Shown piece after piece: positions 30,433 to 54,443 of a stretch of 64,000 nucleotides of DNA. Origin of the DNA: a virus (Duplodnaviria; Caudoviricetes); IMG/VR virus record IMGVR_UViG_2883497546_000001, positions 38,246 to 102,245 of that record; one strand, given 5' to 3'. Each line of letters starts with the position of its first letter. The stretch's first letter is position 1. The notes beneath the pieces were generated by a model. The model ran no database searches and was not told the origin of the DNA. It was given only the letters and a program-made list of their open reading frames with translations. Position numbers and translations under genes: made by a program.

Positions 30433-30942
30433 ATGTCCCGCCGCATCAAGTTCATCCTCCTCAGCATCTTCCTTCTGCTGCTGGCCATCCCAGCTTGGCA
30501 CGTGGGGAGCAACTGGAATCCTCCGAACCCGCTGCGTTTTCGTCTCGTGAGCCGGGAGAATGTGCGGGAGATAGATGGCCGCGTGATGGAGCGGGTGGAA
30601 GTGGAAGTGCTCAATACCAGCACCTCGCCGAGGTATATCCAGGCCACCATGTTGAAGCGTGTCCATGAGTCTTACGACCCATTTCTGACCGTGTTCGACA
30701 GCGGCACAGTGATACCCGCCGGCGGTACCTTGCGTGGCGGCGCCTCGCTGCCGCTGGCGCAGGGGGACTCCACCGAACCTGCCCCCTTGGAAATTGCCTG
30801 CTACCAGGCATCCATCGCGCGTCACCGGCTGCTTCCGTGGTACCTCTGGCTTTGGACGCGCCTTCCCGAATTCCTGAAGTTGCATCTCTGGGTGCCGGAC
30901 ATATACGTCGTATCAAAAATGCCCTTGGAATCATCTTTCTGA
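30433..30942 (+). CDS. Array paralogue 13 (169 aa), WHVGSNW subfamily
   Basis: MSRRIKFIL..WHVGSNWNPPNPLRF. Confidence 0.9.
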   Translation: MSRRIKFILLSIFLLLLAIPAWHVGSNWNPPNPLRFRLVSRENVREIDGRVMERVEVEVLNTSTSPRYIQATMLKRVHESYDPFLTVFDSGTVIPAGGTLRGGASLPLAQGDSTEPAPLEIACYQASIARHRLLPWYLWLWTRLPEFLKLHLWVPDIYVVSKMPLESSF

Positions 30943-31018
30943 TATCTCATCTTCCCTAGCACCTCCCACGTCCCGGTCCTGACATCACAAATCACCAGTC
31001 AAAAATCATAAATAACGG

Positions 31019-31528
31019 ATGTCCCGCCGCACGAAGCTCATCCTCGTTGGCATCTTCCTCGTGCTGCTGGCCATCCCAGCTTGGCACGTGGGGAGCAACT
31101 GGAATCCTGCGAACCCGATCCGATTCCGTCTTGTGAGTCGGGAGACCCTGCAGGAGATAGATGGCCGCTTGATGGAGCGGGTGGAAGTGGAAGTGCTCAA
31201 TACCAGCACCTCGCCGAGGTATATCCAGACCACCATGCTGAAGCGCGTCAAAGAGCACTATGACCCGTTTTTGAATGTCCTCAATAGAGGTACGGTGATA
31301 CCTGCCGGCGGCACCTTGCGCGGCGGCGCCTCGCTGCCGGCGGCAAAGGAGGACTCCACCGAACCTGCCGCCTTGGTCGTCTTCTATACCCAGGCATCCA
31401 CCACGCGTCACCGGGTGTTTTCGTGGTACTACTGGCTTTTGGGACATCTTCCCGCATCCCTGCAGGAGCGTCTCTGGACTCCTGCCATCTACGTTCTATC
31501 AGAAACGACCCTTGAATCCTCTCCCTGA
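31019..31528 (+). CDS. Array paralogue 14 (169 aa), close to 13
   Basis: WHVGSNWNPANPIRF. Confidence 0.9.
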   Translation: MSRRTKLILVGIFLVLLAIPAWHVGSNWNPANPIRFRLVSRETLQEIDGRLMERVEVEVLNTSTSPRYIQTTMLKRVKEHYDPFLNVLNRGTVIPAGGTLRGGASLPAAKEDSTEPAALVVFYTQASTTRHRVFSWYYWLLGHLPASLQERLWTPAIYVLSETTLESSP

Positions 31529-31604
31529 TATCTCATCTTCCCCAGCACCTCCCACGTCCCGGTCCTGACATCACAAATCCCCAATCAAAAATCATCAATA
31601 ACGG

Positions 31605-32180
31605 ATGTCCCGCCGCACGAAGCTCATCATCACCGCACTCTTCCTCGTGCTGCTGGTCATTCCCGTGGTGTACGTCATCCTCTCATGGAATCCGCACGAG
31701 CCCTGGCGCGCCCGACTCGTGGCAGTGCAGGACCATCAAGGAGGAGAAAAGAAGGAAGTCGTGATCGAAGTTGAGAATATCTCCTCTGTGCCGTTATGCA
31801 TTTATATTGCCACGTTGGATGGTCCTGGTGTCCCTCCCGAGCAGTCCTTTCCTCTCCTCCTTGAGCCATTGGGGCCGACCGCACCCAGTCCTCCAGAATT
31901 GGGCGGTCAGTATTCTTTGCACGTCCCTCCTCGGGAGGTACAGCGCCTCCATGTCTCCGTGTCGATGGCCGACTTGGAGACGGTGCCTGCGAGTGCACGG
32001 TCCGTGGACCTCCTCTGGGCATCAGGCACAAAGCACCGCACCATCGCCGGCCTCTTGTGGCTGCAGCGCCATCTACCCAGTAGCAGCGAGGACTACGTGC
32101 CTTTCCCTTCGCTGGGCGGATCCACCTTGGCTCTCGATATCGGGGAATCCGCTTCTCAGACACTGGTTCATCATAAATAG
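31605..32180 (+). CDS. Array paralogue 15 (191 aa)
   Basis: MSRRTKLII..WNPHEPWRA. Confidence 0.9.
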   Translation: MSRRTKLIITALFLVLLVIPVVYVILSWNPHEPWRARLVAVQDHQGGEKKEVVIEVENISSVPLCIYIATLDGPGVPPEQSFPLLLEPLGPTAPSPPELGGQYSLHVPPREVQRLHVSVSMADLETVPASARSVDLLWASGTKHRTIAGLLWLQRHLPSSSEDYVPFPSLGGSTLALDIGESASQTLVHHK

Positions 32181-32232
32181 CCCACTTTGTGCCTTTGTGC
32201 CTGTTGCCTCCCTCCCTCCCTCCGTCCTCCCC

Positions 32233-32757
32233 ATGTCCCGCCGCACAAAGCTCATCCTCCTCGGCATCTTCCTTCTGCTGCTCGCCATTCCGGTGTGGCA
32301 CGTGGGGAGCAACTGGAATCCTCCGAGCCCGCTGCGCTTTCGTCTCGTGAGCCGGGACACCCCGTCGGAGATCGACGGTATTTGGAGCGAATGGGTGGAA
32401 GTTGAAGCGTTCAATACCAGCTCCGCTCCGAGATATATCGAGATGGTGACGTTGAAGCGTGTCAAAGGTCCTGACAACTCGTTCGACCCGTTTGTGCCGA
32501 GTATCATCTCCAGCGGCACGGTGATACCTGCGGGCGGCACCGTGCGCGGTGGCGGCTCACTGTCGGTGTCAAAGGAAGGCTCCACCGAACCTGATACTTT
32601 GGAAATTGTCTATTTCCAGGCATCCACCGTCCGTCATCAGGCGCTAGAGGGGTACTATTCGTTTTTGGCACGCCTGCCTGAACCTCTCCAGGAGCTTCTC
32701 TCGTGGTCCTCCGTCTGCACCGAGTCCAAAGCGCCCCTTGAGGAATCACCTCCCTGA
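32233..32757 (+). CDS. Array paralogue 16 (174 aa), WHVGSNW subfamily
   Basis: WHVGSNWNPPSPLRF. Confidence 0.9.
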   Translation: MSRRTKLILLGIFLLLLAIPVWHVGSNWNPPSPLRFRLVSRDTPSEIDGIWSEWVEVEAFNTSSAPRYIEMVTLKRVKGPDNSFDPFVPSIISSGTVIPAGGTVRGGGSLSVSKEGSTEPDTLEIVYFQASTVRHQALEGYYSFLARLPEPLQELLSWSSVCTESKAPLEESPP

Positions 32758-32873
32758 GATCTCAGCGCATCTCATCTCATCTGCCCCAGCACTTCCCTCC
32801 GGGCAGAGGAGTACCACCTCCCGCGTCCCGGTCCTGACATCACCAATCACCAATCAAAAATCATCGATAACTG

Positions 32874-33437
32874 ATGTCCCGCCGCACGAAGCTCATCATC
32901 ACCGCCCTCTTCCTCGTGCTGCTCGCCATCCCTGTGGTGTATGCCGTCCTCACGTGGCGCCCACAGAATCCCCTGCGCTTTCGCCAGTTGGGTGAGAGCG
33001 TCCTGAGGGATGAGACTGGAAAGGTATACTATAGTAGGAAGCTTCTGGAGGTGCGGAACATCAGCGTCGCCCCCGTGCTGTGCCTGTCGGGCACATATTC
33101 CTGGGAGTCGCCGGAAGGGGAGGGGACATTCTTTGCCTCATGGAGTCTGGGCGGAAGCACCATCGAGGAGCGTTTCATCCCACCTGGTGGCGCCATCCAG
33201 ATAGAGTTGGACCCTCCAAACCTCATGCCCGCAGAGTACAGCAAGCATCGGCAAGCAGGAGAGCAGCGCTCCGGGGAGGGGAGAGTCCATTACCGGTGGG
33301 GCTCCCGCGTGCAAGCATCGACTTCAAGTGCGTGTCTCTGGATTAGCGAGAAGCTTCCGGAAAGCATGTGGAACCTTGTGCCCCATCTGGATCCGTTCGA
33401 AGACGAAATCGATATGGATCTCTCGCCGCCACCCTAA
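32874..33437 (+). CDS. Array paralogue 17 (187 aa), close to 36
   Basis: WRPQNPLRFRQL..WGSRVQASTS. Confidence 0.9.
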   Translation: MSRRTKLIITALFLVLLAIPVVYAVLTWRPQNPLRFRQLGESVLRDETGKVYYSRKLLEVRNISVAPVLCLSGTYSWESPEGEGTFFASWSLGGSTIEERFIPPGGAIQIELDPPNLMPAEYSKHRQAGEQRSGEGRVHYRWGSRVQASTSSACLWISEKLPESMWNLVPHLDPFEDEIDMDLSPPP

Positions 33438-33493
33438 GCAAGTCACCCTGCCGCCTGCCAACCGTATTCCAAATCCTAAATCATCAATAGCGC

Positions 33494-34048
33494 ATGTCCC
33501 GCCGCGCGAAGTTCCTGCTCCTGACGCCGCTCTTCCTCCTGCTGGGCATCGTGGTGGTATACGTCTTCGTAAGCTGGCATCCCGCGAACCCGCTCCGCTT
33601 CCGGGTGGTGGATGCGTCACTGCCCTCGCTCTGGCAGTATCACGAGGATACACAGATCACCGTCGCCGTGGAGAACGTGACCTCCACGCCCATCTACCTG
33701 CGATACCTCACCCTGCCGAGTCCCCCGTGGGTGCCCGGCACGAGGAAGGTGTGCGGCTCCGTCGTCTCCAGAGAGCAGCATCGCCATCGTGTCGGAGCGC
33801 AGGGGAATTACCTCTTGGTGCCCGCGCACAGCACCATTCATGTAGCCGGCCTTGTCATGAATGAACGGCTTGAGGATGCCAGAGCCGGTCGATTGCGCGC
33901 CAGCTACACGTGGATGTCCCGTCTCAAATACCGTTGCAGCACCTTCTCGGAATGGTGTGGGCGCCGGGTACCTCAGAAGCTGTCCCGCTACCTGCCCCGG
34001 CCCTCCCACGGTGTGGATGAGTGCCCACTCGAAGCCACAGTACCCTGA
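33494..34048 (+). CDS. Array paralogue 18 (184 aa)
   Basis: MSRRAKFLL..WHPANPLRF. Confidence 0.9.
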   Translation: MSRRAKFLLLTPLFLLLGIVVVYVFVSWHPANPLRFRVVDASLPSLWQYHEDTQITVAVENVTSTPIYLRYLTLPSPPWVPGTRKVCGSVVSREQHRHRVGAQGNYLLVPAHSTIHVAGLVMNERLEDARAGRLRASYTWMSRLKYRCSTFSEWCGRRVPQKLSRYLPRPSHGVDECPLEATVP

Positions 34049-34152
34049 GCGCGGGTTCATGTAGGGGTGTTTGGCTAACACAGAGATGAAGCAAAGCAGA
34101 ACGTCTCGTGATGGGAGTGCCCCTGGCGGCGGGGACATGACTCTGCAACGAG

Positions 34153-34387
34153 CCACCTTGCGCGAAGCGCCTTGGAGTGCGTGTGCGAAGCACCGCTTTG
34201 GTGGGAAGCTTTGAGGTGCGGAGCTTCCTGCAGGCAGGCTTGCGTTGGGTGGTTCCGCATCACGAGAACGTATCGACCCGCCGCCGCCGCTTGGGGTCAT
34301 GGATAGATCCTGCGTCATCCACCTCGCGGTATTTCCTCCCAAAGCGGTGCTTCGCACGCGCACTCCAAGGCGCTACGCGCAAGGTGG
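34153..34387. repeat. REPIN-like element family R1 (CCACCTTGCGCGAAGCGCCTTGGAGTGCGTGTGCGAAGCACCGCTTTGG inverted arms); also 36732-36960, 38498-38732, single arms at 11437, 55611 and degenerate at about 9715
   Basis: About 49-bp inverted arms around a 130-140 bp core. Confidence 0.88.
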
Positions 34388-34519
34388 AGCCCGTTCATGA
34401 ACGCTCCTGGCCGTTCGTGTCGGACACGTCACGAGACGTTTCGATAGCGTTCTGTTAGCACCCCAGCGCGTATTCGTTTCGGCGGTGACAAGCAACCTTG
34501 CAGGTGTTAGATCCCGCCC

Positions 34520-34813
34520 ATGGGTGCAAATCGTTCCGGCAGGTCTCAGATGTTGGTGTGGATATTCGTGCTCGTGCCCGTGTTGTATATCTCAAGCGTC
34601 CCCTTCGTGAGGTTTGCCGCACTCCAGCCAGAGTGGAGAACCTACCCTCCCGGGAAAACCGGAGGGCCGGTCAGCGCATGGCATTATCGAGGGGCTGCAC
34701 CACCTTGGGTCAAGGTCTACACCGCGCCTTACGAATTGTTCAGGCTCATACCCCCGCTCGACCGTCCGCTGTACGCTTATCAAAGCTGGTGCTGGGATCT
34801 CCTGGGACGCTGA
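34520..34813 (+). CDS. Small Trp-rich membrane protein, family W copy 6
   Basis: VLYISSVP, PPWVKVYTAPYEL, PPLDRPLYAYQSWCW. Confidence 0.8.
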   Translation: MGANRSGRSQMLVWIFVLVPVLYISSVPFVRFAALQPEWRTYPPGKTGGPVSAWHYRGAAPPWVKVYTAPYELFRLIPPLDRPLYAYQSWCWDLLGR

Positions 34814-34967
34814 GCAAGCGCTCCACTCAACATACGGCACCTCCACCCTTTCCCCGGGGCATGACAGGCAAGCCATGAACCAGCCGCAGTGCTCACGTGC
34901 GGGACGTGCTGCCATTTGAATCGATCCGCCCGGTGACAAGCAACCGTCTGGGTGTAAACTCACGCCC

Positions 34968-35270
34968 ATGCGTGCAGGACGTTTAGGCAAGCCCCATCTG
35001 TTGGTGGGGGCTCTTGTACTCTTTGTGGTGATTCCCGTGCTCTATTTTTTGAGCGTCCCACCCCTGAAGTTTGCCGTGGTCAAACCAGAGCGGGTAATCC
35101 TTCCTTTCAAAAATACCGGGAAGACCGTGAGAGCATGGCATTATCGGGGAACGGAACCAGATTGGCTCAAAGCCTATGCCACGCCTTATGATTGGCTGAA
35201 GATCCGGCCCCCGCTTGGCCGTGTGCTGTACGCCTACCATAACTGGTGGTGGAAGACGCTGGCACGTTGA
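34968..35270 (+). CDS. Small Trp-rich membrane protein, family W copy 7 (tandem duplicate of copy 6)
   Basis: VLYFLSVPP, AWHYRG, PDWLKAYATPYDWL, YAYHNWWW. Confidence 0.82.
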   Translation: MRAGRLGKPHLLVGALVLFVVIPVLYFLSVPPLKFAVVKPERVILPFKNTGKTVRAWHYRGTEPDWLKAYATPYDWLKIRPPLGRVLYAYHNWWWKTLAR

Positions 35271-35376
35271 GCAACAATCGGCTCCACTCAATCCACCCTG
35301 TGCCTTCACCCATCTCACGGAGCAACCGAATCCACTCTGTGCCTGTTGCCTGTCACCACCCTCGTCCCTCCTCCCC

Positions 35377-35964
35377 ATGTTTCCTCGCATCCGGCACTTG
35401 CTCCTCGTTCTCTTCCTGGGGTTGTTATTTATTCCCCTGGCGTATGTGGCGCTCACGTGGAGCCCTCCGAATCCCCTCCGCTTCCGCGTGGCCGGCTATG
35501 GCTATGAAGCGCCGTCTCGTGAGGGGCAGTTTCGCGTCTCTGGAAAGCTGAACATGATCGTGGAGAACACGAGCAGCGCCCCTGTGAAGCTCTTCTTCGC
35601 TGTCTTGACGGAGCCGGGCAACCCAGCCAGGGGCATCGTCGACCCCTTTGGCCCTCATTGGACTGTAGCCATGCCCCACCATCCCACCAGCATGATCATC
35701 CCTCCGCACACCTCCCTTCCGTGCTTTAGCATCGTGCCCGAGGACGACTATCCGGCATCTGCCCTTGAGAAAATCGAACTGTCCTATCACTGGATATCTA
35801 CTACTCGAGCCAAGGTGAGTGAGGTCCGCGAATGGTTGTTCTTCCATGCCCCTGCATTCGTGAGGCCCCATATCACAATGGACTGGCCCTCGAGCAATGT
35901 AGACACCACCCCACTGCAGCCCGCGCTTCCCGGCCAGAGCCAACCTCAGAGCCGTGGCGGCTGA
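35377..35964 (+). CDS. Array paralogue 19 (195 aa)
   Basis: MFPRIRHLL..WSPPNPLRF. Confidence 0.88.
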   Translation: MFPRIRHLLLVLFLGLLFIPLAYVALTWSPPNPLRFRVAGYGYEAPSREGQFRVSGKLNMIVENTSSAPVKLFFAVLTEPGNPARGIVDPFGPHWTVAMPHHPTSMIIPPHTSLPCFSIVPEDDYPASALEKIELSYHWISTTRAKVSEVREWLFFHAPAFVRPHITMDWPSSNVDTTPLQPALPGQSQPQSRGG

Positions 35965-36114
35965 TATCTTGCCTGGAGTCATCTGGTTCGTTGGGCAACA
36001 TTCGCCTCAGCTCAATCCACCTTGTGACGCACCCATCTCATAGAGAGAAAGAAAAGAACCCACTCTGTGCCTTTTCCTGTTGCCTCTCTCCCTTCCTCCG
36101 TTCGTTCTCAGCCC

Positions 36115-36678
36115 ATGTCTCGCCGCGTAAAGCTCATCATCACCGCGCTCTTCCTCGTGCTGCTGGCCATCCCCACAGTGTATGTCATCCTCACCTGGAG
36201 CCCTCCGAATCCCCTCCGCTTCCGCTTGGTCGGCTATGAAGATCCGTCTCGTAAGGGGCAGTTTCGCGACTCTGGAAAGCTGAACATGATTGTGGAGAAT
36301 ACCAGCAGCGTCCCTGTGTATGTCGTATGGGCAACCATGAAGAGGGCGGGCAACCCAGATAGCGTGGCCGACCCCTTTAGCCAACTTAGGGAAGTATACG
36401 GACCCGATGACAGCGACAGCATGATCATCCCTCCCCACACCTCCCTCCCATGCTTTTGCCCCGTGCTCCAGGACGAGTATCCGGCATCCGCCTTTGAGAA
36501 TATCGAACTGTTCTACGGCTGGATGTCTGCCAATCGAGTCAAGGCAAGTCAGGCTCGCATTTGGTTGTTTTTACGTGTCCCTGAATTCGTGAGGCCCTGC
36601 ATCCCGATAAACTGGCCCACGCACGACCAGGATACTACTCCACTCCTGCCTGCCCTCTCCGCTCGCAGCTCCCCCTGA
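36115..36678 (+). CDS. Array paralogue 20 (187 aa), close to 19
   Basis: WSPPNPLRF..SGKLNMIVENTSS. Confidence 0.9.
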   Translation: MSRRVKLIITALFLVLLAIPTVYVILTWSPPNPLRFRLVGYEDPSRKGQFRDSGKLNMIVENTSSVPVYVVWATMKRAGNPDSVADPFSQLREVYGPDDSDSMIIPPHTSLPCFCPVLQDEYPASAFENIELFYGWMSANRVKASQARIWLFLRVPEFVRPCIPINWPTHDQDTTPLLPALSARSSP

Positions 36679-37050
36679 GTCGTCCCGGGAGATGAATCAC
36701 GCTTGTTTCACGGAGTCGTCCCCGCCATGCACCACCTTGCGCGAAGCGCCTTGGAGTGCGGTGCGAAGCACCGCTTTGGCGTGTGAGGTTGCGAGCATGG
36801 TGACGCTGGCTTTATCGCAAAGCCCAGAGCGGGGCAGCACGGTGCACGACTTGAAGGTGATGCCAATTTCGTGGCGTGGTCACCATCATGCTCCGCACTT
36901 CGAGCTCCCCACCAAGGGGGTGCTTCGCACACGCACTCCAGGGCGCTTCGCGCAAGGTGGCACGTGCAGGGGCAGAACTCATCTCCGTGAAAAGCTCGCT
37001 GATTTCTTGCATGGAGCCTGCACCTGCCCTCCTTTCCTCCCTCCTCACAC

Positions 37051-37593
37051 ATGTCTCGCCGCATAAAGATCATCATCACCGCCCTCTTCCTGGTGCTGCT
37101 CGCCATTCCGGCGGTGCATATCACCCTCACGTGGCGACCGGAGAATCCGCTGCGCTTTCATGTGGTGGGTGAGCGCATCGAGCAGATGCAACACTACAAA
37201 GAGAAGATTCGAGTCCTCACCCTCGAAGTGGAGAACACCGCCGCCACCAGCATCGTGCTGGGCTACGGCTACGTGGAGCCCGCGGGCGAGCAGGATAGGC
37301 CGAGAATGCTGGGCATGCTCGGTTGCTTGATCAACGCAAAGGGAAGATACGATCTCCCCGTGACCGTCGGCGCCCGGCAGACTGTTCCTTGCGAGCTGAT
37401 GTTTGAAGAAGACGTGCCTCACGATACCCCGCTGAAAGACGTGGTGGTGGGCTACAGCTGGCGCTCTACCTCCTTGAAGCGGGTGCAGGATTTCTCACGA
37501 TGGCTGCATGAGCACCTGCCAGAAAGCATCCACAGGCACGTACCGTTTCCCCGGACACCGATGGATGTGCAGCCGCTTCGTCCGCGCTCATGA
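37051..37593 (+). CDS. Array paralogue 21 (180 aa)
   Basis: MSRRIKIII..WRPENPLRF. Confidence 0.9.
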   Translation: MSRRIKIIITALFLVLLAIPAVHITLTWRPENPLRFHVVGERIEQMQHYKEKIRVLTLEVENTAATSIVLGYGYVEPAGEQDRPRMLGMLGCLINAKGRYDLPVTVGARQTVPCELMFEEDVPHDTPLKDVVVGYSWRSTSLKRVQDFSRWLHEHLPESIHRHVPFPRTPMDVQPLRPRS

Positions 37594-37739
37594 CACCAGG
37601 CACACGTCCCATCGAGCAAGGGGGAGGGCAGTGGCCGGTGAGAGCAGCCCCGGCCTTTTGCTGAATCTTTCTTTTGTTGCAAGGTTCCAGTGAATCAGGT
37701 TGTAATGGGCCCACGAGGTACGTGCCCCTCATCCCAGCC

Positions 37740-38420
37740 ATGAATGCCCACTCCTCCTCCACCGCCGCTTCACGCCGCGCGAGCCAGCCTTCCTTCCGCT
37801 TCAGTGGCTACCTCTTATCTTCCATCGCCCGGCAGACACCGCTCCTGTCCCGCCGTACGAAGGTGATCCTGCTCGCCCTGGTGGGCATCCCGCTGTTGTA
37901 CACCGTGCTCACCTGGGCTCCGCGCGAGCCGCTCCGCTTCCGCGTGGCCGGGCAGCACACACCCACCAGCGGCAATGCATACACCTCTGTCGGCGTGGTG
38001 ATTGAAAACACGAGCGCCACACCCGTGTGCCTGTTCAAGGCAGACCTGACTGCGGCACAGGCGTCGGATAACGGAGCAAGTCCCGAGCCCCTGCCCGCGA
38101 CCACGGATGCAACCGCCCGCGTCGGTCTCTTCCATCCCATGGAGCACCCGCACAGGCAAATGTCTGACAAGCGCTCCATGGTCATCATCCCAGGCCACAG
38201 CACTCTCGAAGTCGCCGCCCTCGTCGAGCATGCCAACGTCGATGCCGCGAAGACCGGCCAACTTCACTTCCAGTATGAGTGGATGTCCGACACCCGCCGC
38301 CGCGCCTCCACCGCCCTGCACTGGCTCCGCGCGCACGTGCCCCAGTCCTTCCAGTCCAAGATTCCCGTCCTCACGGATAATCAAAACTCCTGCCCCCTGC
38401 AAGCAGCAGCGGGGTCGTGA
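37740..38420 (+). CDS. Array paralogue 22 (N-terminally extended, or CTG start at 37845)
   Basis: LSRRTKVIL..WAPREPLRF; family ATG position reads CTG. Confidence 0.8.
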   Translation: MNAHSSSTAASRRASQPSFRFSGYLLSSIARQTPLLSRRTKVILLALVGIPLLYTVLTWAPREPLRFRVAGQHTPTSGNAYTSVGVVIENTSATPVCLFKADLTAAQASDNGASPEPLPATTDATARVGLFHPMEHPHRQMSDKRSMVIIPGHSTLEVAALVEHANVDAAKTGQLHFQYEWMSDTRRRASTALHWLRAHVPQSFQSKIPVLTDNQNSCPLQAAAGS

Positions 38421-38994
38421 GCGGTGAAACACAGGTGCACATGCATGGCTCGTGAGATCGCACTCGCGCACACGCAGTGCGCGTCCAATGGAAGTCACCA
38501 CCTTGCGCGAAGCGCCTTGGAGTGCGTGTGCGAAGCACCGCTTTGGGAGGAGACGTCACGAGGTGGATGACGCAGGATCGATCCATGACTCCAATCGGAG
38601 GTCGCGGGTCGCTGCGTTCTCGTGATGCAACCTCACCCAGCGTGAGACTGCCTGCCCGAAGCTCCGCGCCAGAAAGTTTCCCACCAAAGCGGTGCTTCGC
38701 ACACGCACTCCAAGGCGCTTCGCGCAAGCTGGTACCTGCATAGGAAACATTTCGTGCAACGCACTGGACGCGTCACGAGACGTGCAAACAAATCTTCCGT
38801 GCAGCGCCCTGATCTGACGCACGTGCTGCTCCTCGCGGGAGCCGCTTCGGCATGGCTCTCCCGGTGCGGAGGCACGCGGCGATGCCAGCGTCTCCCTTGC
38901 CACTCTTATCTTCCGGCACACTCCGGAAGATACCCGTAGATTTTTGGGGCGATATAAATCATAAATCATAAGGCATTAATCACAAACTCCCCCC

Positions 38995-45359: not shown

Positions 45360-45449
45360 ATATCGCCACCCACCCACGCTGACGGTCCACCCAGAAGGAG
45401 ATTTGAGATTTGAGATCTCAAATTTCAAATCTCAAATCATAAACAGCGC

Positions 45450-46049: not shown

Positions 46050-46100
46050 CACCATCACCCACTCTGTGCCTTTGTTTTCCTTTTCACTCCGCAGCTCCTT

Positions 46101-46739: not shown

Positions 46740-46863
46740 ATGGCGCCGGCTATCCAAACCACGGATAATGACTAAGATAGGGACTGGGATAACGATGACG
46801 AGGACAGTTCACCAAACGATGGATAGCCCGGAGGCCTTTTGTCGCCTTTTTGACACGCTCGTC

Positions 46864-47350
46864 AGCCCCTGAGGCACCATGGGCTCTAAACGTTAGCGTC
46901 CCTCCACAAAAATGGACGGTAGGGATGCGCTCCTGCGCGTCCGTAGATCGCGGGCGGAGGCGGGGGAGGGGATGCCGCGTCGCGAGGCCGCTTCGTGCCG
47001 CAGCTCCACACCACCTCCGCCCACCTGAAGTCGGACGCGCCATGAGCTTGTCCAGCGCATGCCTACCGCATCTTTGGTGAAGGGGCGCTTGCCTTGAAGT
47101 ATGTTTCATCGTCGAAACAAAGACACCCGCGAGCCCCTGAGGCACCATTAACTCTAAACGTTAGCGTCCCTCCACAAAAATGGACGGTAGGGATGCGCTC
47201 CTGCGCGTCCGTAGATCGCGGGCGGAGGTGGGGGCAGGGGATGCCACGTCGCGAGGCCGTTTCGTGCTGCAACTCCAGACCGCCTCCGCCCCCTATTTTC
47301 GGACGCGCAGGAGCGCATCCCTACCGCATCTTCGGTGAAGGGGCGTTTGC
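46864..47350. repeat. Tandem duplication (about 268-bp period) of a REPIN-like unit (GGTAGGGATGCGCTCCTGCGCGTCCG and reverse complement)
   Basis: Two near-identical units starting AGCCCCTGAGGCACCAT at about 46864 and 47132. Confidence 0.85.
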
Positions 47351-47799
47351 CTTTGAAGGACGTAGTCCGCGGAACCGCTTCGACTGTGCTTCGCAGTCTA
47401 CTGCGAAAGGCCGGAGCGATGGGCCTGAGGTGTGCCGGGCCGTTCTGGCGCCGCTTTCAGGGCGCAATGCATGTTGAGATGCCCTGTCCCAGGGAATCGG
47501 TCCCGTTCGGGCCCATCATCCCTGCGCTGGATTCGTGCGACCCTTCGGGCCGCGTACTGACTCAGCACCGACCGGTGCCACTCACCACCGTCGAGAATCC
47601 ATCTTATGTTAGTGCTTATTGGCAGGAGTGCCCCGATCCTCATACAGGGCTGTCGCCCCGGCTCCGCTTCGCCACGGCATCGTCCACCCCAGGAGTCATG
47701 CTGGAATGCTGGGTCATGGTGAGTCCCTGCCACTCCGTCGACGCGATACCGAAAAAACGTTCTCGATCTGAGCTCATCCATCCCCAATCATCGATAGCG

Positions 47800-48396
47800 A
47801 TGCCCCGCCGCACCCCGCTCCTCATCCTTATCACCCTGCTCGTGCTGCTCGCCACCCCTGCGATTTATGTGGCCTGCACCTGGAGCACGGAGAATCCCCT
47901 GCGCTTCGAAGCGGTGCGCCTGGAGATGGAACCCTCACGCGGAGTGAAGGAGGTCGGCATTCTCCACCTGACCGTGAGGAATGTCAGCAAGCTGCCCGTT
48001 TATCTCACCTTCGCGGGATTGAAGCAAAAAAATGCCAGCGGTGCCAGTGCTGCCTTCCAGGTGGTAGGCGGCATCGTCCCGCGGTTGCAGGACCGCCCTG
48101 GGGACCCCTCCAGTGCTCTTTACCTGCCGCCGGGCGGGTCCATGCAGTGCCGCGCCTACATCGTGGTCCAGGACGTGCATTCACCGAAGGCCTTGCAGGA
48201 TATTGATGTGAACTATCACTGGCGCTCCGGCACCGGCGAGAAGGCGCACACCTTCTGGGCACAACACATCTACCAGACCACGGACTGGCTTGAGAAACTG
48301 ATTCCCGCACCAGATCTGCAGCGCCACCGCAGCCCACTCACGCTCCCCGCCACCGCTTCCCCCCAGCCATCCCCAGGGCAGGGGAGTGGCAAGTGA
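47800..48396 (+). CDS. Array paralogue 31 (198 aa)
   Basis: MPRRTPLLI..WSTENPLRFEAVRLE. Confidence 0.9.
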   Translation: MPRRTPLLILITLLVLLATPAIYVACTWSTENPLRFEAVRLEMEPSRGVKEVGILHLTVRNVSKLPVYLTFAGLKQKNASGASAAFQVVGGIVPRLQDRPGDPSSALYLPPGGSMQCRAYIVVQDVHSPKALQDIDVNYHWRSGTGEKAHTFWAQHIYQTTDWLEKLIPAPDLQRHRSPLTLPATASPQPSPGQGSGK

Positions 48397-48497
48397 CGCC
48401 ATCACCCAGTCCCATCCTATCTACAGCCTCGACTCATCCCCCATTTCTCTTTTCACTTATCCCTTTTCACTCCGTCTCCGCATCTCCGCATCTCCCC

Positions 48498-49136
48498 ATG
48501 TCCCGCCGCGCCAAGCTCCTCATCACCGCGCTCTTTATCGTGCTGCTCACGGTACCGGTGGTGTACGGTTGTCTCTTCTGGTCCATCGAGCAGCCCTTGC
48601 GCTTCCGTTGCATCACCGTGCTTCCGGAGGATACAGGCAAGCTGCTTATCTCGCTGCCTCATGAGCCGGTCGTCCCCTTCATCTTCGAGGTACAAAACAC
48701 CAGGCCCTACCCCGTGTACTTCCAGGACATGAGTATCTTGGCATACTATCCGGAGTCGCCACTGCCGGATGGATACCTTTCCATGGACTATGTCACACGC
48801 AGCGTGCGGGATAAATCTTTGTGGGCCGCTCCGAGCCTGTACGGGCAATACATTCCCGCCCACGGCGTGACCCGCTTCGAAGTGCTCATGCGTCCGAAAA
48901 CCGTCAGCGAATTTGAAACGGGCAAAATCAAACTCGTCTCGTTTTGGGCAAGTGTTCCCAGAAGGCTGGCATACGACGCGCGAAACTGGGTGCACCCACG
49001 CCTGCGCAAAACGCTCAGGTTTGCGAGGCTCCCCTATGTGTCATCATCCCAGCAAGGCCCCGCCACCCTCGAAGGCCTGCCGGTCGTTATTCCTCGTCCC
49101 GTCATGAGCTCCCCGCCATCCCCACCACCTCCCTGA
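48498..49136 (+). CDS. Array paralogue 32 (212 aa)
   Basis: FWSIEQPLRFRC. Confidence 0.9.
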   Translation: MSRRAKLLITALFIVLLTVPVVYGCLFWSIEQPLRFRCITVLPEDTGKLLISLPHEPVVPFIFEVQNTRPYPVYFQDMSILAYYPESPLPDGYLSMDYVTRSVRDKSLWAAPSLYGQYIPAHGVTRFEVLMRPKTVSEFETGKIKLVSFWASVPRRLAYDARNWVHPRLRKTLRFARLPYVSSSQQGPATLEGLPVVIPRPVMSSPPSPPPP

Positions 49137-49203
49137 CATTCCTCCAAAAACGATTTCAGATTTGAAATCTCAAATCATAAATCATAAATCATAAATAGCC
49201 CCC

Positions 49204-49824
49204 ATGTCCCGCCGCACGAAGCTTCTCATCACCGCGCTCTTCCTCGTGCTGCTCGGCATTCCCGTGGGGTATGCCATCCTCTTCTGGTCCGTGGATCAGC
49301 CCCTGCGCTTCCGTTGCGTCACCGCGCTTCCGCAGGAGATGGCACAGGGACATCCCATGATGCCTCCTGAGACCGTCATTCCTCTCATCTTCGAAGTGGA
49401 AAACACCAAGCCGTATCCCGTCTACCTCTCGAACGTGATCATCCGGGAGTACACGCCGGGTTCGTCATCGCCTGATGGATATTTTCCCTTGAATTATCAC
49501 TCGCGCAAAGCGCCGGCCAGATCTTCGTCAGCCGTACCAAGCTTGTCCGCGCAATCCATTCCGGCCCATGGCGTGACCCGCTTCGAAGTGCTCATGAATC
49601 CGGCAGCCGCCCGCACACTCGGGCCGGACAAGGTAAGACTCATCCCTCATTGTGCCAGTCCTCCCAGGAAATGGGCGATCGATGCGCAAAACTGGTTGCG
49701 CGCCCGCCTTCCTGAAAAACTCGGCTTCGCGAAGCTCCCCCCAATCCCGTTCCAGAATAGCCCCGCCGCCCTCGAAGGCCCACCGGTCATTATTCCCCGC
49801 CCCGTTATGAGTTCCGCGCCCTGA
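49204..49824 (+). CDS. Array paralogue 33 (206 aa), close to 32
   Basis: FWSVDQPLRFRC. Confidence 0.9.
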   Translation: MSRRTKLLITALFLVLLGIPVGYAILFWSVDQPLRFRCVTALPQEMAQGHPMMPPETVIPLIFEVENTKPYPVYLSNVIIREYTPGSSSPDGYFPLNYHSRKAPARSSSAVPSLSAQSIPAHGVTRFEVLMNPAAARTLGPDKVRLIPHCASPPRKWAIDAQNWLRARLPEKLGFAKLPPIPFQNSPAALEGPPVIIPRPVMSSAP

Positions 49825-49889
49825 CGTTCCTCCAAATGAGTTTTCAGATTTGAAATCTCAAATCTCAAATCTCAAATCATCAATAGCCC

Positions 49890-50438
49890 ATGTCCCCCCG
49901 CACGAAGATAACCATCCTCTCCGTCTTCCTCCTCCTGCTCGGCCTTCCCGCGATCTATGTCGCGCTCACCTGGCAAGTGGCAGCCCCCTTTACCTTCCGG
50001 TACCTGGAGCGTGGCGAACCGCAGAAGTCGCTATTCACCCCCTCTGGCAGCTCTCCCTCGACTCCTTTGGTGCCCATATTCCTCGAGGCGCAGAACACCA
50101 GCAGTCGCCCCGTCCACCTCGGCGGGGTAGAGCTGCGGGCGCGCAGCGGGGGTCCCCGACAGCTCGTCTACACCATGTGGGGAGGACCTCCCATCCCGCC
50201 CCAGGGCACCGCCCGCGTGCAGGTCCTCGTGGATCCGGCAACGGCCCAGCGCGTGACACGCGAGGACTTCGAGGTCTCCTACAGGGCATTCAGCAAGACC
50301 AAAGAGAAGACAAAAGACATCTTCTATAAGCTGAAAAGCATGGCCCCGTCACTCCTGCACCGGGACGCGGATCCATTCACCAGCGCGAAGGATGAATTCG
50401 TGACCCCGCTCATCATCGACCCGGCCCACCAGGAATAG
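49890..50438 (+). CDS. Array paralogue 34 (182 aa), VADP-related
   Basis: WQVAAPFTFRY. Confidence 0.9.
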   Translation: MSPRTKITILSVFLLLLGLPAIYVALTWQVAAPFTFRYLERGEPQKSLFTPSGSSPSTPLVPIFLEAQNTSSRPVHLGGVELRARSGGPRQLVYTMWGGPPIPPQGTARVQVLVDPATAQRVTREDFEVSYRAFSKTKEKTKDIFYKLKSMAPSLLHRDADPFTSAKDEFVTPLIIDPAHQE

Positions 50439-50494
50439 ATTCCAGATTTGAGATCTCAAATTTCAGATCTCAAATCTCAAATCATCAAGAGCCC

Positions 50495-51085
50495 ATGCCC
50501 CGCCGCTCCAGAGGCATTCTCGCAGCCAGCATCATCACCGTCATCCTGCTTGGCCTGGCGCTCGCGTTTTATGTCGTCCTCGGGCTGCCGGTGAATCCCC
50601 TGCGGTTCCGCCCCATCGCCTACCTGGAGCACGACATGCTTCCCGTGGGCTTGCCCAAGAGTGGCGCGGAGTACGTTCACATGGCCGTGGAGAACACGTC
50701 CAACTCCACCGTGTATCTCGCGACGGCGGCTGTGCTCAGCGCGGGCCCATCGAAGAAATACACCCTCGCCTATCTCTCGCATGAGGAGCAGGGGCTGCTT
50801 GGTGCATCCTCCCCCCTCCGTGGCTATGTCATCGTCATTCCACCACGCAGCACCGTCCCTTGTATTGCCTCTGCCCCATCCGGGCGCCTAGTGGAACTCA
50901 GCCTCGGAATCGCGCCCGTGCAGTATGAGTGGACCACCGACGAAAGGTACCAGCTCCTGGAGGCCTGCGAGCGCATGTACCCCTACCTTCCCACGAGGCT
51001 CCGGTCTCACCTCCCTGCGCCCGGCATGCGCCACGATACCATCCCCCTCGAGCTCCCGCCAAACACCCCCGGCCCCAGTGAATAA
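50495..51085 (+). CDS. Array paralogue 35 (196 aa)
   Basis: MPRRSRGIL..LPVNPLRF..VENTS. Confidence 0.88.
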   Translation: MPRRSRGILAASIITVILLGLALAFYVVLGLPVNPLRFRPIAYLEHDMLPVGLPKSGAEYVHMAVENTSNSTVYLATAAVLSAGPSKKYTLAYLSHEEQGLLGASSPLRGYVIVIPPRSTVPCIASAPSGRLVELSLGIAPVQYEWTTDERYQLLEACERMYPYLPTRLRSHLPAPGMRHDTIPLELPPNTPGPSE

Positions 51086-51353
51086 TCAGAGCTCCTGCTC
51101 TTCATCGCATCCCCACCCACACCCATCTTCCGACTTGAAGTCTCAAACCACGGATGATGATTGCGACGACGAAGACGACAGCAACAACAACAACAATGCC
51201 TCGCCCGAATCTGGATAGCCCGAAGGCCCTTCGTCCACCCGCACCACGAGTCGCCACCCACCCACACTGACGCTCCACCCGGAAAGAGATTTCAGACGTG
51301 AGCTCCCAAATCTAAAATCATAAATCATAAATCAAAAATCATAAATAGCCCCC

Positions 51354-51950
51354 ATGTCCCGCCGCACGAAGCTCCTCATCACCACGCTCTTCCTCGTGCT
51401 GCTGGCCATGCCCATGGCATACGTCGTCCTCGCCTGGCATCCGCAGAATCCACTGCGTTTCCGCCAATTGGATGAGAAGGCCACCTATTACGCGTTCCCG
51501 TCGCCGGGTGGCTTGGTGGAAAAGGAATACCACAGCAGAATGATGATGGAAGTGCGGAACACCAGTGCTGCCACCGTACTGTTCATCTCAGGACATTTCA
51601 TCGGAGACTCGTCAGAAGGAAAGGAGGCATTCCGTGCCCAATGGTTTGCGCCTCCGGGACACATTGAAGCGCACCCCATCCCCCCAGGCGGCGCCATCCA
51701 GGTGGAGTTTCATTCCGCAACCGTGCTGGCCACGGCGGACCTCAATCTCCTGCAAGCGGGGAAACTCCGCCTCCGGGACGGGGTTATGCGGTACCAGTGG
51801 GGCTCCCACGTCCAGGCATCGACCTCGGGTGCATGTATCTGGCTTCGTGAAAGGTTGCCTGAATCCCTCGCAGACCACCTGCCCCACATGCTTCCGTTCG
51901 AAGACACCATCGACATGGATCTCCCGCCACCCACAAATCAAAAATCATAA
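51354..51950 (+). CDS. Array paralogue 36 (198 aa)
   Basis: WHPQNPLRFRQL..WGSHVQASTS. Confidence 0.9.
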   Translation: MSRRTKLLITTLFLVLLAMPMAYVVLAWHPQNPLRFRQLDEKATYYAFPSPGGLVEKEYHSRMMMEVRNTSAATVLFISGHFIGDSSEGKEAFRAQWFAPPGHIEAHPIPPGGAIQVEFHSATVLATADLNLLQAGKLRLRDGVMRYQWGSHVQASTSGACIWLRERLPESLADHLPHMLPFEDTIDMDLPPPTNQKS

Positions 51951-51973
51951 ATCAAAAATCATAAATAGCCCCC

Positions 51974-52507
51974 ATGTCCCGCCGCACGAAGCTCCTCATC
52001 ACCGCGCTCTTCCTCGTGCTGCTCGGCATCCTCGCGGTGTATCTGTTTCAATCATGGAAGCCGGAGAACCCCCTCCGCTTTCAGGTGGTGTCTGTCACTT
52101 CACCCACTCCAGCTACCGGCAGGCAATATCATCCTTATCTGCTGGAGTTCACCGTGACGAATACCTCCAGGGTGCCCATGACTCTGCATTTCGCGCGTCC
52201 GGCATTTCCACATCCCACGGGGAAACCGGATTATCTTCTCGACCATACAAGCGATTTCAAGATTCCAGCAGGCCGTACCGTCCGGTTCAAGCAACCCGTC
52301 ACCGGGCATTTTCAGCAAGGCGTCCTCGCACGTGAGCCCATCCCCGTGGAGTACTACTGCTCGTCAGCCTCCCAGCGATACGTGGCGGATGCCCTGGTCC
52401 GCCTGTACTTTGAATGTCCTGAAAAGTACCGGAAACTGATTCCCCGGACAGAGATGACCAGGTGGGAGACACCCCTCCAGCCCGCATCTCCACCGGTCAA
52501 TCCTTGA
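51974..52507 (+). CDS. Array paralogue 37 (177 aa)
   Basis: WKPENPLRF..EFTVTNT. Confidence 0.9.
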   Translation: MSRRTKLLITALFLVLLGILAVYLFQSWKPENPLRFQVVSVTSPTPATGRQYHPYLLEFTVTNTSRVPMTLHFARPAFPHPTGKPDYLLDHTSDFKIPAGRTVRFKQPVTGHFQQGVLAREPIPVEYYCSSASQRYVADALVRLYFECPEKYRKLIPRTEMTRWETPLQPASPPVNP

Positions 52508-52550
52508 AATCCCCAATCAGAGATCATCAATCGTAAATCATCAATAGCCC

Positions 52551-53063
52551 GTGTCCCGCCGCCCGAGTATAACCATCCTCTCCGTCTTCCTCGTGCTGCT
52601 CGGCATTCCCATGGTGTATCTGTTTCTATCGTGGGATCCGGGGAATCCCATCCGCTTTCGGGTCGTGGCTGTCACTCCCGCGACTCCTGCTCCCGGCCTC
52701 CCTGAGTATCCCTTCCTCGTGGAATTCACGGTGACAAATACCACCTTGGTGCCCTTGACCCTGCGTAGTGCCCGTCTGGAGCCACGCTTCCGTACCTTGC
52801 GTCCCGGCTACCTCGTGGAGCCTCCCTGCAGTGTCAAAATTCCGGCGGGCGGCACAGTCCATCTCAAGGTGCCCGCTACAGAAATTCTACGCGGTACCCT
52901 CGAAGACCCCGCCCCACTCATGGTAAGATATGATTGCACATCGAAGGTCAGGGACCTCGCGACCGATGCGCATGGTTGGTCGAAGAGTCGTTTTCCCATC
53001 ATACGCTTTGTGCTCATAGCGCAAATGTGTGCTCCCGAGTGGCTGACGCAACTTCAGCCCTGA
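52551..53063 (+). CDS. Array paralogue 38 (170 aa, GTG start), related to 37
   Basis: WDPGNPIRF..EFTVTNT. Confidence 0.88.
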   Translation: MSRRPSITILSVFLVLLGIPMVYLFLSWDPGNPIRFRVVAVTPATPAPGLPEYPFLVEFTVTNTTLVPLTLRSARLEPRFRTLRPGYLVEPPCSVKIPAGGTVHLKVPATEILRGTLEDPAPLMVRYDCTSKVRDLATDAHGWSKSRFPIIRFVLIAQMCAPEWLTQLQP

Positions 53064-53130
53064 GCCAGCCAGAGGGCTGAGTTTTGAAATCCCCAATCAA
53101 AAATCATCAATCATAAATCATCAATAGCCC

Positions 53131-53679
53131 GTGTCCCGCCGCCGCATCAAGCTCATCTTCCTCCTCGTCCTCGTGGCCACCGCGAGCCTCGTGGCGGTGC
53201 AGCTCGTGCTCACCTGGTCGCCGGAGGACCCGCTGCGCTTTCGCATCACCGCCCCACGCACCGCAGCTGCGGAGGCCCTGCCGGGCATTGAGTACGCGGT
53301 CACCGTGGAGAATACCACCTCCACCACCATCCACCTCATCCAGGCGGACGTGTTCGTTCCGGCGAAGGATGTGAAACCCGATGAGGCCGCTAACACCTAC
53401 GTCAGCTCCGTGCACATTCCCTACTCAGCCTCCGCCGGCACACCCCTCACCGTCATCCCACCGCACAGCACCTGCGAAGTCGTGCTGCCACTCCCTAAAG
53501 AATTCTCCCTCGAGAACCTGAAGGATGCCCACATCAGCTATTTCTCCACCTCGCGCAGCAAGGCCGCCATTTACAACGCCGTCGTCCACCTTAGAAAGAC
53601 CCTGCCCTCCCTGAAGCTCGACCCCTTGTTCCCGTATCTCGCCCCCGACACGCATCGTACCCCTCTGGAGTTCCAGTAA
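53131..53679 (+). CDS. Array paralogue 39 (182 aa, GTG start)
   Basis: WSPEDPLRFRITAPR. Confidence 0.88.
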   Translation: MSRRRIKLIFLLVLVATASLVAVQLVLTWSPEDPLRFRITAPRTAAAEALPGIEYAVTVENTTSTTIHLIQADVFVPAKDVKPDEAANTYVSSVHIPYSASAGTPLTVIPPHSTCEVVLPLPKEFSLENLKDAHISYFSTSRSKAAIYNAVVHLRKTLPSLKLDPLFPYLAPDTHRTPLEFQ

Positions 53680-53793
53680 AGAAAAGACACTTCCATGCAT
53701 TTACGGGCAGCGTCCCCATCCCTCTGCTAGACTCCCCCATCTGAAATTTGAGATCTCAAGTTTCAGATTTCAGATTTCAAATCTCCAGTGCTC

Positions 53794-54342
53794 ATGTTCC
53801 GCCGCCCGAAGGTCATCCTCTTCTGCATCCTCATGGCCATCGTGTGCCTCGTGATGGTGCATCTCTACCTCAACTGGAGACCGGCAAATCCATTGCGCTT
53901 CCGCATCACTGCCCCACGGTCGGTTCCCTCGGGAGGCGAAGGCGCGCGCATGGTGGACTACCCCGTCACCGTGGAAAATACCAGCTCCGCCACCATCCGC
54001 CTCATCATGGCGATCCCATTCCCCCCAAAAGAAAAGGACGGTGATGAGGATGAGTACGACAATCCTTCCATCGGCGAGGTGCGTCCCCCGCATCGCTCCG
54101 CCGAGCCCCTGGCCATCATCCCACCGCACGGCACCTGCGAACTCATCGTGTCACTCGTCCGCGACCGCTCTCCGGAGGATCTGAAGGGTGCCACCATGAG
54201 GTATTTCACCGTCACTCCCAGCAGGGCTGCCTTCATTCGCGCAGTGGTCCGCTTCCAAAGAGACTTCGCATACCTGAAGATCAACACCTTATTTCCGGAC
54301 GAGTCTTTCGACATGCATGAGGCCCACATACAGTTCCCATAA
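53794..54342 (+). CDS. Array paralogue 40 (182 aa)
   Basis: MFRRPKVIL..WRPANPLRFRITAPR. Confidence 0.88.
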   Translation: MFRRPKVILFCILMAIVCLVMVHLYLNWRPANPLRFRITAPRSVPSGGEGARMVDYPVTVENTSSATIRLIMAIPFPPKEKDGDEDEYDNPSIGEVRPPHRSAEPLAIIPPHGTCELIVSLVRDRSPEDLKGATMRYFTVTPSRAAFIRAVVRFQRDFAYLKINTLFPDESFDMHEAHIQFP

Positions 54343-54443
54343 AGACACTTCATTTACGCGCAGCATCCTCATCCCTCTGCTAGTCTCTCCGAAACCAAAT
54401 CCAAAATCATCAATCGAAAATCGTAAATCATAGATAGCCCCCC

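Follow-up and report, generated by a model that had tools for sequence, protein, structure and literature searches.

Gene array and protein family

The stretch of DNA analysed here (the window, 64,000 nucleotides) corresponds to positions 38246 to 102245 of the Caudoviricetes record IMGVR_UViG_2883497546_000001 and carries a large tandem array of paralogous genes. The array has 42 members, all on the + strand, which were found by comparing a hidden Markov model (HMM) made from 22 clear members with stop-to-stop frames. The principal finding concerns the spacers between the genes: the 5′ part of a spacer follows the gene that lies upstream of it, whatever gene comes next, and homology between sister units mostly begins at or near the ATG. 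Coordinates are those of the window throughout.

19037..56376, + strand: gene array, 42 paralogs of 165–229 amino acids (aa), N-terminal transmembrane (TM) anchor and variable immunoglobulin-like (Ig-like) domain

Each unit is a complete gene, with its own ATG, a full leader of 37 aa and its own upstream spacer. The leader has the consensus MSRRTKLII..LLAIP..Y..LTW.P.NPLRFR. It is followed by a variable part of ~140–190 aa that has a few conserved motifs (VxVxNTS..P, IP..GT, Y.W.S and PLE). An AlphaFold2 model of gene 8, based on 85 aligned sequences, shows an N-terminal TM helix and then an Ig-like beta-sandwich (predicted local distance difference test score, 92.8). Members of the family have no significant match in Pfam, PHROGs or PADLOC and, as judged from these collections, the array proteins belong to no described family. 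Fold searches (Foldseek against PDB and BFVD, and the VIA wide search) return generic Ig-like or PapD-like sandwiches only, with Z≤8. Archaeal type IV pilins were considered as fold relatives (Z ~7) and set aside, as the pilin signal motif is absent. The named database matches of the family are entries for ‘hypothetical protein’ of Roseimicrobium gellanilyticum and of Roseimicrobium metagenome-assembled genomes. Related arrays are found in R. gellanilyticum and in L012, a soil metagenome contig of 12.8 kb.

Spacers follow the upstream gene

The 41 spacers are designated by the gene they follow. All unit pairs were scored for similarity of the upstream variable domain, the first and last 40 nucleotides (nt) of the spacer, the next leader and the next variable domain. 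Similarity in the first 40 nt of the spacer is correlated with that of the upstream variable domain (Mantel r=0.315, p<=0.001) and not with that of the downstream domain (r=0.006, not significant). The last 40 nt display a weak correlation with the upstream domain (r=0.129, p=0.007) and none of significance with the downstream domain (r=-0.03). With each of nine paralog groups left out in turn, the correlation between the spacer 5′ part and the upstream domain is still r>=0.198, p=0.002. High 5′ similarity is found in 21 spacer pairs, seven of which follow sister genes, and none precedes sister genes; the other 14 are short spacers that consist of heptamer repeats alone and follow unrelated genes. 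Within the window, the association of spacers with upstream genes is real and statistically sound.

The units that display this property, and one pair that does not, are as follows.

30433..30942, + strand: gene 13, WHVGSNW group A, 72% aa identity to gene 14, homology to unit 14 from the ATG
30943..31018, + strand: spacer s13, 4 of 76 nt different from s14, sigma70-like site at 30979-31006
31019..31528, + strand: gene 14, group A, first 24 nt exactly as in genes 15 and 17, both of which have the same spacer type upstream
31529..31604, + strand: spacer s14, of the s13/s16 family, promoter-like site at 31565-31592
32233..32757, + strand: gene 16, group A, with a CT-rich upstream spacer that does not resemble the spacers ahead of genes 13 and 14
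32758..32873, + strand: spacer s16, the s13/s14 sequence with a 40-nt insert, 6 mismatches in 76 aligned nt, promoter-like site at 32834-32861
35259..36678, + strand: genes 19 and 20, the counter-example, with 118 nt of upstream spacer in common and the downstream spacer not
38995..39659, + strand: gene 23 and first 113 nt of s23, homologous from -5 to the gene 24 unit at 39814-40480 (81% over 688 columns)
43960..44771, + strand: gene 27 and s27, first ~100 nt of the spacer common with s30, 3′ part an ~80-nt repeat and a heptamer palindrome
44772..45449, + strand: gene 28, a hybrid gene, and s28, which is s27 with an internal deletion
45450..46064, + strand: gene 29 and 15 nt of s29, homologous to gene 31 and 15 nt of s31 (47780-48411)
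46101..46839, + strand: gene 30 and first 100 nt of s30, TGAATGGCGCC..ATCCAAACCA, common with s27; a similar start follows a related L012 gene
48498..49889, + strand: genes 32 and 33 with s32 and s33, homologous from -4 of the ATG to +61 of the next gene, entire spacer included
53131..54443, + strand: genes 39 and 40 with s39 and s40, first 48-58 spacer nt in common

Gene numbers match those of the original prediction, which had been made from the letters and open reading frames of this DNA. Genes 13, 14, 16, 23, 27, 29, 30, 32 and 39 start at the first coordinate given for them above, and genes 24, 31, 33 and 40 start at 39819, 47800, 49204 and 53794. The spacer consensus strings quoted in that prediction are all present in the sequence, and its proposal that spacers resemble one another according to the upstream gene, which equal or better correlation with the downstream gene was to refute, is borne out by the correlations above. 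The sharing of spacers that it listed for 27/30, 29/31, 32/33, 39/40 and 23/24 was also recovered, with extents that vary from ~15 nt (s29 and s31) to the whole spacer (s32 and s33). Its statement on the WHVGSNW genes holds for three of the six, genes 13, 14 and 16; it does not hold for gene 10, which shares only 9-19 nt, nor for 23/24, which have another spacer. The downstream genes differ in every quoted spacer pair. A 20-mer of the group A spacers, CGTCCCGGTCCTGACATCAC, has exactly three copies in the genome, and these follow genes 13, 14 and 16. In L012, a gene related to 27/28/30 (42-48% aa identity) again precedes TGAATGGCACCGCCTCATCCA, and two WHVG-type genes are not followed by an s13-type spacer.

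Boundaries of homology

In group A (genes 13, 14 and 16), homology between sister units begins at the ATG (-5 to 0) and ends at +59 to +84 of the next gene. Homology of gene 10, of the same group, also starts at about the ATG and ends only 9-19 nt past the stop codon. The boundaries are -5 and 113 nt past the stop in group B (23/24), -4 and +61 of the next gene in group F (32/33), +9 and 48-58 nt past the stop in group H (39/40), and -21 and +15 past the stop in group E (29/31). In group D (27, 28 and 30), the left boundary is at about the ATG and the same spacer start is found after all three genes. The left boundaries of groups G (17/36) and I (37/38) lie in generic heptamers. The right boundary of group G runs into the conserved leader of the next gene, its spacers being alike in heptamers only, and that of group I is inside the gene (nt 214). 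A left boundary at -5 to 0 holds where the two upstream spacers differ in kind (13/14/16, 23/24, 32/33 and 27-28/30). The pair 27/28, with 149 nt of upstream spacer shared, was considered as a second counter-example and withdrawn because eight spacers contain this stretch as a generic repeat and because s27 and s28 are themselves homologous.

The constant 5′ segment and hybrid genes

Mean pairwise nt identity over all units is 0.41 at -10 to -1, 0.91 at nt 0-9 and 0.5-0.7 up to +110, and then falls to background. Synonymous constancy was measured on non-sister pairs that have the same amino acid, with the expectation taken from codon usage in the variable domain. At most positions of codons 2-18 the same codon is found in 0.8-1.0 of the pairs, compared with 0.2-0.5 expected. 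From about codon 19, codon identity is mostly at expectation, even at the conserved amino acids P20, P33 and L34. As the excess lies mainly in codons 2-18, only about nt 1-57 (~54-57 nt) are constant as DNA; an example is 24125-24181. Exact tracts of >=25 nt are present in 54 of 861 unit pairs, and the longest exact tracts among non-sisters (>=17 nt) start mostly at -10 to +9. Adjacent non-sister genes are more alike over nt 1-57 than non-adjacent ones (identity 0.763 versus 0.727, permutation p=0.0004), and show no excess likeness over nt 58-111 (p=0.82). The adjacency effect in R. gellanilyticum is a trend only (p=0.16).

Two genes are hybrids at the nucleotide level. Gene 28 matches gene 29 from -25 to +6 (ATGCCC, within a 30-nt exact tract), and the rest of it is a sister of gene 27. 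Gene 20 resembles its neighbour, gene 21, over nt 1-60, including a rare TCT serine codon, and from about nt 65 resembles its sister, gene 19. A third case of local identity joins two genes with unrelated domains:

51322..52003, + strand: genes 36 and 37, 62-nt exact tract (-32 to +30) in common, domains unrelated

Gene 36 has lost its own stop codon and the 5′ part of its spacer (51936-51973); the frame ends at a TAA within heptamers (..PPPTNQKS*), and only 23 nt are left between genes 36 and 37.

Over 120 nt, leader similarity is correlated with that of the gene's own variable domain (r=0.357) and not with that of the upstream gene (r=-0.009). Ranked by leader similarity, the top nine pairs each join sisters whose upstream spacers are unlike. 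The window and R. gellanilyticum share a leader consensus, identical over the first 50 nt, and L012 genes start likewise. One leader is found detached from any variable domain:

25397..25489, + strand: leader-only stub, family HMM positions 1-31, without variable domain, preceding a non-family gene at 25571-25972

A search for pseudogene remnants in the long spacers gave this known stub alone. The gene that it precedes (+ strand, 133 aa) lies within the array and is 78% identical at the aa level in R. gellanilyticum and 70% in L012, a conservation far above that of the surrounding array genes; neither Pfam nor PHROG has a match to it.

Spacer composition and promoter-like sites

Spacers are composed of an idiosyncratic 5′ part, which follows the upstream gene, and a generic 3′ part of two forms. 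One form has tandem heptamers (AAATCAT or AAATCTC), often with inverted copies (GAGATTT) ahead of them, which form hairpins of up to 20 bp. The other is a CT-rich block (..CTGTGCCTGTTGCC..CCCC). Generic sequence of these two forms, heptamer or CT-rich, makes up most of the last 40 nt of the spacers. Of 12 genomic copies of AAATCATAAATCAT, 10 are inside the array. Several long spacers also contain other genome-wide repeats.

The heptamers, as (AAATCAT)2-4 and (AAATCTC)3, are found just upstream of many ATG codons between 19619 and 55824 (for example at 24731-24785, 44713-44771 and 49137-49203), and (AAATCAT)n places TAA stop codons in all three frames. Two array spacers of R. gellanilyticum, s42 and s44 (G001 C15), have other heptamers, (TGGTCAT)7 and (TAGTCAG)13. 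These repeats are candidate sites of slippage or phase variation. One such palindrome is situated just before gene 28:

44713..44755, + strand: perfect 20-bp hairpin, (GAGATTT)3/(AAATCTC)3, centroid -28.2 kcal/mol, fold z=-6.7

At least eight spacers (s1, s10, s12, s26, s27, s28, s30 and s35) contain, always in one orientation, a repeat of ~80 nt (GGATAGCCCGGAGG..CTGACGGTCCACCC; read also as GGATAGCCCGGAGGCCCTTC..CACGAGTCGCCACCC..CTGACGGTCCACCC). Examples are at 44640-44712 and, in L012, at 9340-9420 and 11465-11540.

The sigma70-like sequence CTGACA-16-AAAAAT has its only matches in 30300-34200 within s13, s14 and s16, each ending 12 nt before an ATG. Divergence between s13 and s14 (4/76 nt, 5%) compares with a proportion of synonymous differences (pS) of 0.29 between their upstream genes, and that of either spacer from s16 (6/76 nt, 8%) with a pS of 0.42-0.44. 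In 23/24, the divergence of the spacers (16%) is close to that of synonymous sites (20%). Because their divergence is 5-8% where synonymous divergence is 29-44%, s13, s14 and s16 have been either constrained, perhaps by the promoter-like site, or recently converted. Such spacers would not be neutral passengers; in the case of conversion, recent tracts would extend over the spacer and portions of the gene. No Shine-Dalgarno sequence is seen before array genes. The ATG usually follows CCCC or GCCC, with A/T blocks that resemble a -10 element 8-12 nt upstream; array mRNAs may lack a leader or have only a very short one.

Age of the duplications

Sister pairs have a synonymous divergence (dS) of 0.24-1.5 and a ratio of non-synonymous to synonymous divergence (dN/dS) of 0.41-0.96, and their differences are distributed evenly among codon positions 1, 2 and 3. 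With dS values of this size, exchange events are rare and mostly old. Synonymous differences between genes 13 and 14 are clustered, with 0 of 18 sites different in codons 49-72 and 12 of 16.5 in codons 73-96 (permutation p=0.002). Clustering is also significant for 39/40 (p=0.0085) and is not in 10 other pairs. Donors for the divergent patches of 13/14 were sought in genes 10 and 16 and none was found; all four genes are mutually divergent there. Differences between sisters show no adenine bias and occur at all codon positions. A search of public reads recovered only four soil or rhizosphere metagenome runs, which contain 5-9% of the sequence words and give contigs of 150-320 nt at low depth; no RNA run was listed among the matches. 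Joints in the metagenome reads have sides of <50 nt in repeats or leaders and are unusable for hybrid junctions, repeat number or expression.

Genomic setting and related lineages

The window belongs to the complete 7.96-Mb genome of a soil Roseimicrobium, which has one such array and ~8 dispersed copies of the family. The array sits in a prophage region of podovirus type, with terminase genes on one side and replication genes on the other. The left flank encodes a T7-type portal (PF12236, E=4e-100), a small terminase (phrog_51) and the large terminase; terL ends 415 nt ahead of gene 1.

17030..18622, + strand: large terminase (terL), phrog_2; Pfam Terminase_6C match below threshold (18.9 versus a cut-off of 22.6 bits)
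56463..58260, - strand: right flank, DnaC/IstB-like loader and DUF1376 primosomal-type gene, a phage replication module

Among 40 relatives searched, the other two Roseimicrobium genomes have the family, and no genome outside this genus does. The layout recurs in R. gellanilyticum, as a head-to-tail array of 51 genes between the same flanks, with terL 94.6% and portal 94.7% identical at the aa level. In L012, terL (89% aa identity) is likewise followed by an array. The flanks at 1-18622 and 56463-64000 are ~90% identical in nt sequence between the two Roseimicrobium species, and the intervening array is almost entirely different. Only ~8 array genes have convincing partners across species (37-65% aa identity, in partly colinear order). 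The best cross-lineage matches are 26-65% identical with few reciprocal pairs, compared with 89-95% for terL, which indicates turnover by lineage within conserved flanks. The four clear orthologs between species have no more than 8-23 nt of flanking sequence in common. A search based on terL found no related locus beyond the bacterium's own genome.

The nearest integrase (PF00589 match) is ~360 kb from the array and none is present among the open reading frames of the flanks, serine recombinases not having been searched for genome-wide. The sole reverse transcriptase match in the genome (RVT_1) is ~2.4 Mb away. An insert of 37-45 kb seems too large for a packaged podovirus genome, and the element may therefore be defective or domesticated. 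The larger object, a 37-45 kb array of unannotated and fast-evolving Ig-like membrane proteins found in at least three Roseimicrobium lineages, is undescribed.

Comparison with known systems

Variable surface-protein loci of Mycoplasma include vlp of M. hyorhinis, vsp of M. bovis, vpma of M. agalactiae and vsa of M. pulmonis. The vpma locus (PMC2268961) was taken as a point of comparison. Like these loci, the array consists of clustered paralogs with divergent surface-exposed parts and a highly conserved 5′ end, where the upstream region and a membrane-targeting signal are located; recombination in the conserved 5′ region and short repeats near promoters are further likenesses. The Mycoplasma loci differ in that their genes, from a few to some dozens, lie in both orientations, and in that they employ a Xer-type site-specific recombinase or homopolymer slippage with one or a few active promoters. 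The array has 42 complete genes in one orientation, no recombinase within ~360 kb in the PF00589 search, and old exchanges. Its proteins are anchored by a TM helix and not by a lipobox, and it is part of a prophage in a soil verrucomicrobium. With no opposite orientations and no adjacent tyrosine or serine recombinase among flank reading frames, it does not resemble an inversion shufflon of the Vpma/Vsa type.

Silent-cassette systems are represented by Neisseria pilE/pilS, Borrelia vlsE/vls and Anaplasma msp2. They too have tandem variable units bounded by constant sequence, and recombination in the constant parts keeps the reading frame. Silent cassettes have no start codon, leader or promoter and donate sequence into one expression site, whereas every unit of the array has an ATG, a full leader and an upstream spacer, and there is no leaderless cassette. 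Nor does the array resemble a diversity-generating retroelement, given the distance of the RVT_1 match and the lack of A bias between sisters.

In Haemophilus influenzae, 7-bp promoter repeats control the expression of hmw1A and hmw2A. The array likewise has tandem heptanucleotide repeats directly upstream of genes for surface proteins. For the array heptamers, unlike the hmw repeats, variation of copy number within a population and an effect on expression are hypothetical.

The concept of birth-and-death evolution by unequal crossing-over (listed in PMC2258175) has been applied, for example, to animal chemoreceptor and immune families. The array shares with such families tandem paralogs in the same orientation, gain and loss by lineage, few orthologs between close species, high dN/dS and duplication junctions in the most conserved segment. 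All 42 genes have one orientation, breakpoints are in the common segment in four groups on the left and in two on the right, with 19/20 as the exception, and genes turn over between conserved flanks. The array differs from the usual birth-and-death family in a size that is unusual for a bacterium or prophage, in the ~57 nt that are constant as DNA, and in spacers filled with heptamers.

Origin of the array

We consider it probable, with some reserve, that the array has evolved by birth and death as a tandem family, and that general homologous recombination, in the form of unequal crossing-over and short gene conversion, has shaped it. The constant first ~54-57 nt of each coding sequence would be the substrate for recombination, presumably RecA-type, between misaligned units. 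A new copy would start at or just after the ATG, span the variable domain and its 3′ spacer, and end in the first bases of the next gene. Since copies would run from ATG to the start of the following gene, the 5′ part of a spacer would be found after related genes, whatever comes next. Duplication and conversion events would be sporadic and mostly old, and the variable domains would afterwards diverge very fast at all codon positions. Some spacers would stay alike, either by recent conversion or because they hold a promoter-like element for the next gene; spacers may thus act as promoters. The spacer rule by itself is not surprising, as unequal recombination in a shared 5′ segment predicts the same.

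This process agrees with the part of the original prediction that placed crossovers in the constant leader, and more specifically with the first ~60 nt, to which the boundaries, the synonymous constancy, the adjacency effect and genes 28 and 20 all point. The same prediction also defined a mobile cassette as domain, spacer and next leader, and this part is not sustained. The leader tracks its own domain, and the upstream unit extends over no more than the first 6-60 nt of the leader that comes after it. Pair 19/20 shows the opposite association, sisters are old, and the recent R. gellanilyticum pair shares no spacer. No integrase or reverse transcriptase is near, and all 42 units are full genes on one strand. 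The terms ‘mobile unit’ and ‘cassette’ exceed the evidence because events are few and mostly old, are not replicated in the sister species and have no dedicated machinery; there is no sign of an active cassette-swapping machine.

Several observations weigh against recombination in the leader as the source of the spacer pattern. The signal is carried by ~9 paralog groups, of which five show the pattern, one is opposite and three are uninformative. The opposite case is group C (19/20), where homology begins at -118, within a shared upstream spacer, and does not include the downstream spacer. The R. gellanilyticum array provides no replication: the Mantel tests are not significant there, and have no power because there is only one recent pair. 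That pair (b41/b42, 87% nt identity) is homologous exactly from the ATG to stop+2 and neither spacer is shared. Most identities over the first 24 nt are simply the family consensus, so that several ‘hybrid’ calls are not decisive. Leader identity is 0.735 and 0.675 within species and 0.704 between them, which reveals no species-specific homogenization. As the consensus is the same in three lineages, selection on RNA or DNA could explain the 57-nt constancy without frequent conversion.

A different explanation for the likeness of spacers is retained function, in which selected promoters or regulatory sites have kept a few spacers alike while others decayed. This amounts to survivorship and is silent on the position of crossovers. 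It accounts for s13, s14 and s16, which are far less diverged than synonymous sites and have the only three sigma70-like sites of their region, and for the s27/s30 spacer start, which recurs in a third lineage after a related gene whose protein is 42-48% identical. It leaves unexplained that homology starts exactly at the ATG, that sisters have upstream spacers of different classes, and that there are hybrid leaders and an adjacency effect in nt 1-57; the 23/24 spacers, moreover, diverge at about the synonymous rate. As a general account it seems unlikely. That spacers are alike merely through heptamers and CT-rich sequence of low complexity is extremely improbable: it fits the 14 of 21 high-scoring pairs that are heptamer repeats after unrelated genes, but the seven non-generic pairs all follow sisters and none precedes sisters. 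The Mantel tests, which are robust to leaving out any group, and the count of CGTCCCGGTCCTGACATCAC in what is an 8-Mb genome refute it.

A programmed cassette system has also been considered. Leader-bounded units would be actively exchanged and ectodomains shuffled in frame behind spacers or promoters, with the heptamers perhaps serving as phase switches. The 5′ segment constant at the DNA level, the hybrid leaders, the leader-only stub and the hairpins in spacers could be read in this way, as could array-specific heptamers of variable copy number before ATG codons and the other heptamers of R. gellanilyticum. The proposal is highly doubtful in view of the age of the sister pairs (dS 0.24-1.5), the 42 complete genes in one orientation with no single expression site, the lack of a nearby integrase, invertase or reverse transcriptase, the leader without species-specific homogenization, and an R. 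gellanilyticum array almost devoid of recent duplicates. Equally speculative, and in our opinion very unlikely, is a prophage-borne diversification device, with 40-50 Ig-like proteins serving, for example, in superinfection exclusion or surface masking, recombination in the 57 nt re-pairing promoters with ectodomains, and heptamer slippage switching genes.

The spacer rule locates the exchanges in nt 1-57 of each gene. It also indicates that variable domains change faster than the non-coding DNA next to them, and that a gene takes over its promoter-like spacer from the upstream neighbour, which could uncouple the regulation of the gene from its own ancestry. The array would be a good model for the way in which bacteria or phages assemble and maintain large hypervariable families in the absence of a dedicated recombinase.

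Additional features

Gene 22 (37740-38420) has CTG in place of ATG at the usual leader start and is open from an ATG at 37740, which would add an N-terminal extension of 35 aa. Its R. gellanilyticum ortholog (60% aa identity) has ~100 nt of this upstream stretch in common. The 1.9-kb gap between genes 12 and 13 holds a 484-aa open reading frame on the opposite strand (28865-30319, - strand). This has no match in Pfam, PHROG or PADLOC, and a homolog with 37% identity is found at a comparable place in L012 (6597-7811, - strand).

One diverged, dispersed member of the family, located outside the window (G000:C1:2227470-2229266, E=3e-12), is ~1 kb from a tyrosine integrase gene and may sit on another mobile element. 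In the left part of the window, a tandem array of 15-nt repeats at 5273-5635, with copies 93% identical, encodes SHRSP-like repeats, and a (CATGCT)n hexamer run is found at ~12250-12331, upstream of 12332.

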